Source: a virus
Strand: one strand, 5' to 3'
Virus genome (UHGV): UHGV-2036287
DNA length: 37,454 nucleotides
Shown here in pieces: positions 1-10,985 of the stretch (position 1 is its first letter; every line of letters starts with the position of its first letter). Under the pieces are notes generated by a model, which saw only the letters and a program-made list of their open reading frames with translations, did not search any database and had not been told where the DNA came from. The position numbers and the translations under genes were made by a program.

Positions 1-62
1 ATGACAAAGTCATCGGGCATTATCTGAACATAAAACACTATCAATAAGTTGGAGTCATTACC
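1..62 (+). mobile_element. IS1 terminal fragment (right end with terminal inverted repeat); body of the element lies upstream of the window
   Basis: nt 1-62 (ATGACAAAGTCATCGGGCATTATCTGAACATAAAACACTATCAATAAGTTGGAGTCATTACC) matches the IS1 end sequence as I recall it; all three forward frames are closed within the first 47 nt. Confidence 0.8.
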
Positions 63-954
<892 letters not shown>

Positions 955-955
955 A

Positions 956-1009
<54 letters not shown>

Positions 1010-7615: not shown

Positions 7616-8527
7616 TTATGCCTCCAGCCCGTTAATCTGTGGCGTCGGCTCAGTCAGCCATGAAGGCGCTGCATTGCCTGTTGGCTCGTCCGGCAGGTCA
7701 AATGTGGAGCGCAGGCTACGCGCTGTGCTTTCCAGTTGACAGACCAGGCCTGCCATGAAGTCTCTGGGGGTATCAATCATGTTTTCAGCACAATATGCGC
7801 ACAGTGTCTCAAAAGCGCTGGACAGTCGGACGGCGATAGCAGATTCCGCCTCAACCGCTAATGCTGTCACTTCCGCCCGCAGCTTCTTAACCTCCTCATC
7901 AGGCTCAGGCGGCTGAATACGGGATTTCTTTTCCAGTCTGGTAGAGAGAGAATCAATTTTTTCATTTTTATCGGCGAGTACGCGCTGTTGTGCTGCGTTG
8001 GTTTCGCGCGCTTCGCGCAGGGCCTGGCGAAGTTCGCGTACTGACATGCGATCAACGTCGTCAAGCGTCAGGCCGGCAACAGTGCCACCATCAGCCAGTT
8101 CGGCAAGGTTTTCATCGTCTTCCGTCATTAACTCGAATAATTTGGCTTTTCCTAAAAGCGCAAACGTCTGCGCTTTTGACTCAAGTTGTGGTGATAAATA
8201 TTTTATTGATGCCTGCATCATTACCTGTGCAGTACGCTTTGACATTGATAATTCAGACTCGACAATATTTATGAAATCACCATGTGGTTCATTTTCTTTC
8301 AGTATTATCAGTCGTTTACCTGCCTCTAGCATGGCCTCAGCACTTTGTGCCATATAAAAGCGTGCTTCGTGAACAATGCGATCTCGTTCATAAGGCAGAC
8401 CATCGCCGAACTGCTGCATGATCTCCACGCGGTGTTGTGCCATGGTATTAAGACTGATGTTGAGATCATCAGACAGCGGCACCTCAGCATTCAGATCAGT
8501 GGACATTGGTGATTTGGTACGTCCCAT
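7616..8527 (-). CDS. Hypothetical early protein (coiled-coil rich)
   Basis: 303-aa ORF with strong RBS (AGGAG 7 nt upstream), ending 4 nt before the transposase start. Confidence 0.5.
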   Translation of the reverse strand: MGRTKSPMSTDLNAEVPLSDDLNISLNTMAQHRVEIMQQFGDGLPYERDRIVHEARFYMAQSAEAMLEAGKRLIILKENEPHGDFINIVESELSMSKRTAQVMMQASIKYLSPQLESKAQTFALLGKAKLFELMTEDDENLAELADGGTVAGLTLDDVDRMSVRELRQALREARETNAAQQRVLADKNEKIDSLSTRLEKKSRIQPPEPDEEVKKLRAEVTALAVEAESAIAVRLSSAFETLCAYCAENMIDTPRDFMAGLVCQLESTARSLRSTFDLPDEPTGNAAPSWLTEPTPQINGLEA

Positions 8528-8537
8528 TGATTACTCC

Positions 8538-8846
8538 TTATAAACGACTACCTGAAATGACACGTTGGTTGATTTCGTTAATACGATCCTGCGCTCGTGC
8601 CATCTCGTTACTGTGAGCCATGGCGATCTGCAGTAACTGGATGCCCGGTGCAAAACGTCCATTCTCCAGTTTCAGGGCCAGCCCTTCTTCAATGAGGGTG
8701 TTGAGTGCCCGATTAATGTTTGCTGGTGACTCGTGCAGTGCTGCCGCCAGTTCACCGTTGGAGATACCGTTCAGAGCGTGGCCACGTAACGCCTTAAGAA
8801 CACGCAAAATACGGGTACCTGCGCTTGATGTATTTGGTTTATTCAT
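8538..8846 (-). CDS. Winged-HTH DNA-binding protein (putative early regulator)
   Basis: ILRVLKALRGHALNGISNGELAAALHESPANINRALNTLIEEGL looks like an IclR/MarR-type wHTH; RBS AGGAGG; ATGA overlap with the upstream gene. Confidence 0.5.
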   Translation of the reverse strand: MNKPNTSSAGTRILRVLKALRGHALNGISNGELAAALHESPANINRALNTLIEEGLALKLENGRFAPGIQLLQIAMAHSNEMARAQDRINEINQRVISGSRL

Positions 8847-9067
8847 GACACCTCCTTAAGGATACCGGGGGTAACTTCTTTACCTATTGCAACCGATAGA
8901 TCTCGCAAAATCCGATAAGTCAAACGACCACGTGGTAGTTCACTTTTACCAGCCCAGCGACTGACTGCCTGTGTGACTGTTCGTGGCTCATAGCCTGCGT
9001 TAAGCGCGAACTGGCGCAAGCTACTGCCTCGTTCAACTAGTCGTGCCCGAACTTGTTGTTTATTCAT
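8843..9067 (-). CDS. ner: Ner-like DNA-binding regulator (Nlp/Ner family)
   Basis: 74 aa; LRQFALNAGYEPRTVTQAVSRWAGKSE parallels Mu Ner (LSRQFGYAPTTLANALERHWPKGE, from memory); first gene of the early operon, divergent from the repressor. Confidence 0.6.
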   Translation of the reverse strand: MNKQQVRARLVERGSSLRQFALNAGYEPRTVTQAVSRWAGKSELPRGRLTYRILRDLSVAIGKEVTPGILKEVS

Positions 9068-9125
9068 ATGCGGATAGTTCCAGTTGGGTTATCATGTACT
9101 CAATATGAATAAATGTACTTATTCA
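9060..9125. promoter_or_regulatory. Repressor/early-operon control region with operator-like half-sites
   Basis: Perfect inverted repeat TGAATAA-N6-TTATTCA at 9106-9125 plus another TTATTCA at 9060-9066 overlapping the ner start codon, in the 74-bp gap between divergent ner and repressor genes. Confidence 0.35.
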
Positions 9126-9155
9126 AAATAAATAAATCAAGTGGAATTACGCAAA

Positions 9156-9572
9156 ATGAATAACAAAGATGTTAACGCTGTGCTTTCCCGGTTAATGTCA
9201 CTATTCCAAGCAGAGAATGATAGTGAGTTGGCAAGAGCGCTTAACGTCAATAGGCAGACACTTGCAAGTTGGAGGAAGCGTGATTCTGTGCCTTATGCAA
9301 TTTGCATAAACATCGCAGAAGAAAAGGGGGTTTCTTTAGATTGGTTGCTAACAGGTAGAAAACAAGGTTTATCAAAAGAAGTAGACGTAACTCCGACGCA
9401 AGTGCAGTTTAGCCAAGCTGACCTTACTATGCTTGAGCTTTTAAAGCAGCTAGACCCCGAGGTTCGTAACGATCTTCTGCGAGGCGCTGCGGAAAAACAG
9501 CGAGTGATCGAGATGGAAAAACAACTGAAGGAATTATCCGCAACGATTGAGCGGTTAAAAAATGTGGGTTAA
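9156..9572 (+). CDS. CI-type phage repressor (HTH N-terminus, coiled-coil C-terminus)
   Basis: NDSELARALNVNRQTLASWRKRDSVPYAICINIAEEKGVSLDWLLTG resembles the phage CI repressor N-terminal domain; divergent from ner; no Shine-Dalgarno (possibly leaderless); the ORF could also start at GTG 9141. Confidence 0.65.
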   Translation: MNNKDVNAVLSRLMSLFQAENDSELARALNVNRQTLASWRKRDSVPYAICINIAEEKGVSLDWLLTGRKQGLSKEVDVTPTQVQFSQADLTMLELLKQLDPEVRNDLLRGAAEKQRVIEMEKQLKELSATIERLKNVG

Positions 9573-9694
9573 TCTATTCCCAATGAGAACAATTGACAAG
9601 GTTATCAAACCTCTTCGTTATATGCGCTGATTTAAACAGTAGGATGTGCTGTTTGCACTAACCATCTGAACTTTCCGCGTTAAGGATTAATCGT

Positions 9695-10588
9695 ATGAGT
9701 GGTGATGTGAGAAATTATCGTATTGAGTTTCATCAGCTATCGTTTAAGGCCACAGATCAGCTGGCAAATCTCGGAGATGCTTTTCAATCTGTAATTGATA
9801 AACAGAGCCCTTCCTCTTCAAACCATGAGGGTTTTACTAGAGAAATTTGGGGGTTGAAAAAACGCGCGGATGGTTCTTTTAGTGGAGAGTTGAGAAAATT
9901 TCGCAACTCGAACATTCCGGATAAAGGTGCACCAGGGAAACAGTCTACCCCTATTCCACTTGCCAAGGATGAAGGGATCATTGAGCGCAATTTCTTTGTA
10001 TTCTATCCTCGAATCAATGTTATAGGTTGGCACTATAATCATATGGCTTGTGGTATAAGCCGTTTTAGTGCATTTCTTTCAACTATCTTTGGTTCAAAGG
10101 TTAAGCCCGCACCTTTGCTGGAAAAAGATGCAATCGCTAGGCTTATGAGAGGAGATGTCAAAATGAAAAAAATCCAGTTGACGATTCCTCGCCCCCGTAA
10201 TCCTGAGTTTTACCCTGATACTGATTTCAGTCAAAAGACACTACAACTGCTTGGTGATGCAGGTGCCGATACAATGCAAATTGTAATGGGGATTAATACT
10301 CGCCGTGGCGATAGTGATGGTAGGCTTAAGCAGAATATAAAATTTGCTATGCAAGAGTTAGTCGAGTTTGGGGCGAAAAAGGCTGTAATTGATGTGTTCG
10401 ATGCTGATGGTGTTGTCCATCCTGTGGATTTGATTGCCGAGCGTATTTCGTCCTATCAATCGGTAGTTACTGACGCTCGTTTCCCTCCAGCCGAAACCAT
10501 GTACCGTCTAATCGATACTGCGTATGCTGAAAACCGGGAGAGTATCAATGCATATATTGGAGAAGATGAACTCGGCCCTATTGCTTAG
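9695..10588 (+). CDS. RexA-like protein (putative sensor of a Rex-type abortive-infection module)
   Basis: 297 aa soluble protein directly downstream of the repressor (lambda RexA is 279 aa); patches resembling lambda RexA from memory (FFVF...IG...FL...G, LMRG); RBS AAGGA; AT-rich relative to the backbone. Confidence 0.5.
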   Translation: MSGDVRNYRIEFHQLSFKATDQLANLGDAFQSVIDKQSPSSSNHEGFTREIWGLKKRADGSFSGELRKFRNSNIPDKGAPGKQSTPIPLAKDEGIIERNFFVFYPRINVIGWHYNHMACGISRFSAFLSTIFGSKVKPAPLLEKDAIARLMRGDVKMKKIQLTIPRPRNPEFYPDTDFSQKTLQLLGDAGADTMQIVMGINTRRGDSDGRLKQNIKFAMQELVEFGAKKAVIDVFDADGVVHPVDLIAERISSYQSVVTDARFPPAETMYRLIDTAYAENRESINAYIGEDELGPIA

Positions 10589-10985
10589 TTTATTGATTGG
10601 ATGTGGGATTGGTTTTCTCTACTGGTTCAAGTTGCCCCATATGCCAGTAGCCGCAATCCCAAACTTCATGACTACATTGTCCAGTGTCTTTGCAACGTTG
10701 TTAGGTTTTATTATTACAGCAATTGCACTACTTGCATCATTGCTTGATAAACCGTTACTTAAAAACATGCAAAAAACCGGACATTACAAGCGTCTGATGA
10801 CCGATGCATTCTACACTTGCTTAGTTTTGCTAGTGTTGGTGTTGACATGTTTGATTGGGTTGATGCTGCAAAGTAAGCATCAAGAGATTGTAGCCGCTAT
10901 CCTCATTGGGCTTGTTGTTATGTCTATGTTGTGTTTATTACAAACAGGTAGGCGATTATTCAATATAATCAAAGTGATATCATAA
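10548..10985 (+). CDS. RexB-like four-TM membrane protein (putative ion-channel effector)
   Basis: About 145 aa with four predicted TM helices (lambda RexB is 144 aa, 4 TM); TLSSVFATLLGFIITAIALLAS resembles the RexB core; start overlaps the end of the upstream gene; RBS GGGAG before ATG 10548. Confidence 0.5.
   Translation: MHILEKMNSALLLSLLIGCGIGFLYWFKLPHMPVAAIPNFMTTLSSVFATLLGFIITAIALLASLLDKPLLKNMQKTGHYKRLMTDAFYTCLVLLVLVLTCLIGLMLQSKHQEIVAAILIGLVVMSMLCLLQTGRRLFNIIKVIS

Follow-up and report, generated by a model that had tools for sequence, protein, structure and literature searches.

A putative immunity operator array over the early promoter of a BcepMu-like prophage of Escherichia coli

The interval between the divergent repressor and ner-like genes of the virus genome UHGV-2036287 is probably the immunity operator array of a BcepMu-like prophage, at which the repressor, by way of half-sites close to TGAATAA and TTATTCA, would shut the early promoter, Pe; comparison of the DNA with that of its relatives leads us to hold this reading with good confidence. 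Throughout, the window denotes the whole stretch of DNA that was analysed, 37,454 nucleotides in length, and positions are counted from its first letter.

The window is a transposable E. coli prophage of the BcepMu-like kind. Twenty-three complete E. coli genomes contain its region 8500-9700 at 99.9-100% identity, and 604 of the 5426 complete genomes of this species match it in part. The phage records KP12 and Phi06_2974 B match the region at 84% and PhiKM, which is classified as Bcepmuvirus, matches the IclR-like gene of the window at 88%. Genes on the minus strand are ner, one for an IclR-type HTH protein, a DUF3102 gene, an rve transposase, an ExeA-like gene, gam and mor. The repressor gene and ner are divergent, and the transposase genes lie downstream of ner. 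The left flank of the window (1-1000) is unlike that of an identical prophage inserted adjacent to flgB in E. coli strain Ecol_448 (locus L003), which is consistent with transposition into different chromosomal sites. Two genes stand 3' of the repressor (9695-10985), encoding a 297-aa protein and an overlapping 153-aa hydrophobic protein that is probably a membrane protein. The 297-aa protein had no Pfam match, its sole match being PHROG 7651 (unknown function), and a PADLOC search of these genes for defence systems gave zero matches. Other prophages of the family hold a nucleoid-associated protein (FAM21845) or a 175-aa hypothetical protein (KP12) in the same slot, which looks like a variable cargo position.

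An earlier note on this DNA drew attention to a palindrome in the gap between the two regulators, and the palindrome is indeed exact: a perfect 7-6-7 inverted repeat at 9106-9125, composed of TGAATAA (9106-9112), ATGTAC (9113-9118) and TTATTCA (9119-9125), which spans the -10 hexamer of Pe and the bases just upstream of its predicted start. A further TTATTCA is present, as had been described, at 9060-9066 over the ner start codon, which reads CAT at 9065-9067 on the plus strand. The length of the gap, previously put at 74 bp, needs correction, since it is 88 bp when measured to the conserved repressor start, ATG 9156, and comes to 73 bp only with the start at GTG 9141. The latter codon was rejected, since in relatives it is either out of frame or runs into a stop, while ATG 9156 is conserved in relatives and is the start chosen in RefSeq. 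Two copies of the heptamer were absent from the earlier account: a third exact one at 9157-9163, overlapping the start codon of the repressor gene, and one matching at 6/7 positions at 9129-9135. So was a perfect TTATGCA-ATT-TGCATAA at 9293-9309, which is taken up below.

How far such repeats might arise by accident must be weighed carefully in a gap that is 70% A+T. When the 88-bp gap was shuffled, 8-10% of the shuffles yielded a perfect inverted repeat whose arms were 7 bp or longer and whose spacer was 0-12, so that the palindrome is not significant by itself. There are five half-sites with at most one mismatch in 9050-9170 where 1.45 are expected, a number reached in 20 of 2000 shuffles; in the whole window the heptamer occurs 10 times (3.15 expected), with 5 of these 10 copies within 8839-9163. 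Three exact heptamers, at 8839-8845, 9060-9066 and 9157-9163, correspond to ATGAATAA, that is to Met-Asn-Lys/Asn codons at the starts of genes, and the first of them was rejected as an operator because it is a start-codon coincidence. Moreover, part of the left arm of the palindrome (TAA at 9110-9112 and G at 9107) is shared by every immunity group as part of the promoter or leader, and with such group-wide bases in an A+T-rich region part of the symmetry may be incidental. The shuffles of the gap, the heptamers at gene starts and these group-wide bases could be taken to mean that the palindrome is an accident of an A+T-rich promoter, that the heptamers are simply Met-Asn-Lys starts and that no protein recognises the palindrome. 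We regard this as very unlikely, in view of four observations that are set out below: each immunity group has a different palindrome at the same position; the site is retained together with the same repressor HTH at 61-80% identity; the non-coding half of the site at the repressor start codon fits the site of its own group best; and synonymous positions are frozen at a further copy inside the repressor gene.

The half-site over the ner start codon (ATG AAT AAA) at 9060-9066 is a different matter. Relatives with the same repressor HTH read TTGTTCA here in 10 of the 10 aligned, the result of one synonymous AAC/AAT change, and the KP12 type likewise reads TTGTTCA at the ner start codon. Reading of the sequence by eye found no partner half-site for it in either registration. 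The proposal that this half-site is a binding site is thus not borne out, and it is probably a codon coincidence.

Prediction of the early promoter depended upon the relatives. A standard promoter scan of 8800-9700 with a threshold of 9/12 gave nothing in the gap, because Pe scores 8/12, and the promoter was recovered by homology with relatives and a relaxed scan. In the window the predicted Pe runs leftward on the minus strand, with TTGATT as -35 (9135-9140, read 9140 to 9135), a 17-bp spacer and TACATT as -10 (9112-9117, read 9117 to 9112), and it is the best candidate on that strand. The homologous position holds TTGACA-16-TACAAT in KP12 (11/12) and TTGATA-17-TACAAT in locus L047 (10/12). 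TCAA of the -35 and TA of the -10 (9116-9117) are invariant across 15 immunity groups, the -10 conforming to TAnnnT family-wide. Since the homologous hexamers score 10-11/12 in relatives and TCAA and TA do not vary in the 15 groups, we assign 9140-9112 as a predicted, family-conserved early promoter. Transcription would start near 9105, and the palindrome covers the predicted -10 hexamer and the bases up to this putative start.

Downstream of the predicted start, the early transcript has a 38-nt leader that is conserved across all immunity groups and that likely contains the ribosome-binding site of ner. Within this 5' untranslated region lies the conserved block GTTCC..TTGG.TA..TGTACTCA (9078-9104, minus strand), which may serve as a translation signal for ner, as a target of Ner (see below) or as both. 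For the repressor gene we found no convincing promoter, Pc: the best plus-strand candidate, TCAATA (9100)-18-CAAAAT (9124-9129), scores 7/12 and was rejected, not being kept in the Serratia relatives when the alignment was read by eye.

Symmetry across the family suggests a binding unit other than the 7-6-7 palindrome. We collected 80 loci encoding relatives of the repressor, and scored the palindromicity of 17-mers in 26 distinct control regions. The score peaks exactly in the Pe spacer, with a mean of 5.19 of 8 pairs against a background of about 2.2, and 14 of the 26 regions have at least 6 of 8 pairs there; a second peak (4.46/8) is found at the repressor start codon. The palindromes of the Pe spacer differ by group, with examples such as TACGCAA-A-TTGCGTA, ATCCGCA-ATA-TGCGGAT and TTACCCA-AAA-TGGGTAA. 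In the window, the spacer site, which we call O-mid, is TTATTCA-AAA-TAAATAA (9119-9135), a 17-bp 7-3-7 site with one mismatch that fills the 17-bp spacer of Pe; O-mid is most likely the primary operator. To its right, O-right (TTACGCA-AAA-TGAATAA, 9147-9163) places the repressor ATG 9156 at positions 10-12 of the 17-mer and is a candidate autoregulatory or cooperative site. On the other side lies the candidate O-left (GTACTCA-ATA-TGAATAA, 9096-9112), which has two mismatches and covers the predicted Pe start and the first transcribed bases. The left half of O-left is leader sequence common to all immunity groups, and its palindromicity across the family is only a weak bump at offset -23/-24.

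The 7-6-7 registration also peaks family-wide at the offset of the palindrome, with 4.23 of 7 pairs against a background of about 1.8, and a perfect 7-6-7 repeat is found in two other groups (L066 and L070: CGCATAA/TTATGCG and CGTGTAA/TTACACG). The palindrome is made up of the left half of 9119-9135 and the right half of the weaker site at 9096-9112. When up to 3 mismatches to the 7-3-7 pattern were allowed, the window had 7 matches, compared with 0.9 expected; the four best, which are O-left, O-mid, O-right and a perfect palindrome at 9293-9309, all lie in 9096-9309. The likely binding unit is the 17-bp 7-3-7 site, which recurs across the family, and the 7-6-7 palindrome is probably not the unit, though sequence does not tell the two registrations apart and the latter may also be in use; written out in isolation they are TTATTCAAAATGAATAA and TGAATAAATGTACTTATTCA, respectively. 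One match elsewhere, at 10956-10972 at the end of the 153-aa ORF, reads TTATTCAATATAATCAA, an exact TTATTCA with a poor partner (3 mismatches to 7-3-7), and is probably due to chance.

The question of which protein might recognise these sites can be addressed by asking what changes when they change. The ner region of 39 E. coli genomes has 88-93% DNA identity to that of the window, and the homology ends at 9104, one base before the palindrome. In these prophages, which are of the KP12 type, Ner is identical to that of the window at 73 of 74 residues; the repressor has an unrelated N-terminal domain, but its C-terminal 55 residues are 74-87% identical to those of the window repressor. The palindrome at the corresponding position is a different one, TGGGT..ACCCA around TTGACA-16-TACAAT. 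By comparison, relatives with the same HTH as the window (61-80% identity), found in Limnobaculum, Pseudocitrobacter, Serratia and viral contigs, keep (T/C)GAATAA-NNGTAC-TTATT(C/T)(A/G) while the neighbouring intergenic bases vary, and they keep also the (T/C)(G/A)AATAA copy at 9129-9135 and ATGAATAA at the repressor start. The comparison of the window with loci L001 and L004-L007 has a sharp recombination boundary at 9104/9105, ner, the leader and the C-terminal 55 residues of the repressor being common to both types. From their sequences, the repressors of the two E. coli immunity types are domain chimeras.

The earlier note had left it open whether the CI-type repressor, the Ner-like protein or both bind the interval. 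The part of this proposal that concerns the repressor is upheld as far as comparison can take it, in that the sites overlap the conserved Pe and change with the repressor HTH; the part that concerns Ner is not. Binding of TGAATAA-N6-TTATTCA by Ner, either alone or with sites shared between it and the repressor in the manner of Cro and CI, has some appeal, as Ner is an HTH protein encoded beside the palindrome and, in phage Mu, the stretch between the divergent Pe and Pc promoters is where Ner acts. We consider it highly improbable nonetheless, given that Ner is nearly unchanged in the prophages with an unrelated palindrome and that its HTH motif, PRTVTQ.V.RWAG, is near-invariant across all immunity groups (overall identity 50-96%), whereas the operator varies completely. 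A protein with so constant an HTH should have a target that is conserved in the family, and the leader block at 9078-9104, which would suit Ner better than the palindrome does, is a candidate for that target.

The Ner-like gene (8843-9067, minus strand; 74 aa) is the first of the early operon; it is plainly conserved and matches phrog_8503 at 1e-34. Its product has a weak match to HTH_35, at E=0.007 and below the cut-off, and 33% identity over 42 aa to a Mu Ner sequence. The ORF is without annotation in RefSeq NZ_CP015076, which is 100% identical to the window, and is called hypothetical in the KP12-type prophages.

The repressor to which we attribute recognition of the sites (9156-9572, plus strand; 138 aa) begins with an HTH of the Phage_CI_repr type, which a variable linker joins to a helical domain at the C-terminus. 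PF07022, Phage_CI_repr, is the one Pfam family that it matches significantly (1.2e-17; 64.4 bits against a cut-off of 22), and the Pfam search gave no match to an S24 domain. The nearest solved structures are the HTH proteins XPH1, 186 CI and 434 repressor/Cro, the direct match to 186 CI (2fjr, residues 10-73) and to 434-type HTH proteins being weak and limited to residues ~9-72 of the repressor. A single-sequence model of low confidence (mean pLDDT 56.5), used for the layout of secondary structure only, has five helices in residues 3-66, an unstructured stretch at 67-86, a short helix at 87-97 and a long helix at 101-135. The alignment, too, is least conserved at residues 67-86. A flexible tether could explain half-sites at two spacings.

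The site at the repressor start codon can be compared with the spacer sites of the groups. O-right is closer to the O-mid of its own group than to those of other groups (0 of 20000 permutations), and, as the right half of O-right is coding, its conservation must be partly a matter of protein constraint; the non-coding half taken alone has the same own-group preference (0/20000). In several immunity groups (loci L064, L070-L073, L079-L082 and L091, at ~1490-1512 in each) the repressor starts with a TTG that lies inside a TTGGG(A/T)AA half-site, with complementary TTTCC or TTCCC upstream, so that an operator-like palindrome seems to include the start codon.

Complementarity of this kind, retained in other groups with TTG start codons included, might alternatively work at the RNA level, where a hairpin in the leader of the repressor mRNA or around the start codon would control translation or stability, and the palindrome does fold with -4.1 kcal/mol and a z-score of -2.5. 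The stems are, however, weak and rich in A-U, Rfam gave no match and a promoter/terminator scan found no terminator with a T-run, while O-right of the window, with 5 of 8 complementary pairs, is not predicted to form the hairpin at all. In addition, the palindrome lies upstream of the predicted start of the early transcript, which would therefore not contain it, and the recurrence of the half-site at several places and in both orientations suits recognition by a protein rather than a single stem. We judge control through RNA to be extremely unlikely as the role of these repeats and retain the repressor as the protein that would bind them.

The last member of the array lies within the repressor gene itself. 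O-int (TTATGCA-ATT-TGCATAA, 9293-9309) is a perfect 7-3-7 palindrome over codons P46-N52, 174 bp from the centre of O-mid. Codons 46-50 are invariant, as CCT TAT TCA ATT TGC, in all 14 members of the specificity group of the window, the exception being at codon 48, which is TCA in 13 of the 13 with Ser and GCA, for Ala, in the window; at codon 51 the 10 members with Ile all use ATA. Of the 37 other degenerate conserved codons of the gene only one is invariant, which gives a hypergeometric estimate of ~7e-6 for the codon invariance at O-int, and synonymous sites are thus frozen at 9291-9308. In the relatives the left half of O-int is exactly TTATTCA. Across 15 groups the 17-mer at this place has 5-8 of 8 pairs palindromic and stands 174-176 bp from the spacer site, and O-int is more like the O-mid of its own group than the O-mid of others (0 of 20000 permutations). 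It is wholly coding, so its conservation is partly due to protein constraint. These findings point to O-int as an auxiliary operator; a constraint at the level of RNA is possible instead. As a separate observation, the FAM21845-type repressor gene (L004, ~1966-1977, +153 to +164) contains ACCCATTTGGGT, a perfect copy of the symmetry of its own operator at a similar distance into the gene, in parallel with O-int, and KP12 itself has only the ACCCA half at the corresponding intragenic place.

A more general proposal can be made from the O-int comparison, though we offer it tentatively and would put its chances at somewhat below even. This family of repressors may keep a functional copy of the operator within the codons of the DNA-binding domain (P-Y-x-x-C-I/V; 9293-9309 in the window), always 174-176 bp from the promoter operator, and a second on the start codon, which in some groups is the TTG of a TTGGG half-site. 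Coding sequence and DNA specificity would then co-evolve, and the copies might serve autoregulation by looping or by a roadblock.

For the array as a whole, the mechanism that we propose is as follows. The repressor HTH would recognise half-sites close to TGAATAA and TTATTCA; the central site at 9119-9135 would occupy the spacer of Pe, and the half-site at 9106-9112 would cover the last part of the -10 hexamer and the stretch from there to the start, so that bound repressor would exclude RNA polymerase from Pe. With Pe off, ner, the IclR-like gene, the DUF3102 gene, the transposase and the downstream early genes would be silent, and their silence would maintain lysogeny and confer immunity. 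The copies at 9147-9163, on the repressor start codon, and at 9293-9309, within the gene, may add cooperativity, looping or negative autoregulation. Binding by the repressor, the 7-3-7 unit, the start of transcription, looping and autoregulation are all inferences from sequence.

Several well-studied switches resemble this arrangement in part. As in the c/Ner system of Mu, which has operators O1-O3 and divergent promoters Pe and PcM, a repressor gene is divergent from an early operon that begins with ner and runs into the transposase, a small HTH protein of the Ner type is the first early product, and the repressor is proposed, here from sequence, to block the early promoter. The layout of the Mu promoters has been described (PMC3820752). 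The repressor of the window differs from that of Mu in having a Phage_CI_repr HTH and is not a homologue of Mu c; furthermore, the control region is 88 bp here compared to ~200 bp in Mu and the proposed sites are short symmetric palindromes. A consensus search of 8800-9700 for an IHF site, as in Mu, gave no match to WATCAANNNNTTR.

In phage lambda, Cro and CI share operators. The putative operators of the window are like OR1-OR3 of the lambdoid CI/Cro system in being 17-bp symmetric sites in tandem, with centres 23 and 28 bp apart, across divergent units, the specificity of which is exchanged as an immunity module. Unlike lambda CI, the window repressor is without the S24 (LexA-like) autocleavage domain, having 138 aa and a helical C-terminus; Ner, which occupies the position of Cro, does not appear to co-vary with the operators; and the repressor gene carries one site at its start codon and another in its interior. 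Coliphage 186 CI, which uses distant flanking sites, has an N-terminal DNA-binding domain of the same Pfam family (PDB 2fjr; 1.2e-17 for the window repressor). The window repressor is nonetheless shorter than the solved 2fjr chain (138 aa vs 189 aa), and its C-terminal part, modelled as a linker and a long helix, is without a match to the 186 CI oligomerisation domain. O-int, finally, resembles lac O2 in lacZ and gal OI in galE as an operator copy of high quality that lies in coding sequence, at a distance of one to two hundred bp from the sites near the promoter, with the difference that it lies in the repressor's own gene, in the codons of the DNA-binding domain, and that looping is only proposed.

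The switch of the window lacks defining features of each of the Mu, lambda and 186 families. It is most likely an ordinary phage repressor-operator arrangement that combines a gene order like that of Mu, 17-bp tandem sites like those of lambda and a DNA-binding domain of the 186 CI type, and the sites on the start codon and within the gene are its only mildly unusual features.

Our search of the literature found no published description of operators for BcepMu-like phages. While the general understanding of phage switches is unchanged by this work, it provides base-level predictions for the lysis-lysogeny switch of this group, namely the operators, the early promoter and the immunity boundary at 9104/9105. 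The intragenic site, if true, would be a compact example of an operator within the coding sequence of its own repressor. For the family, the proposed array would explain the heteroimmunity of close prophages, in which the N-terminal HTH of the repressor and the operators would be swapped together while Ner and the C-terminal domain of the repressor are kept.
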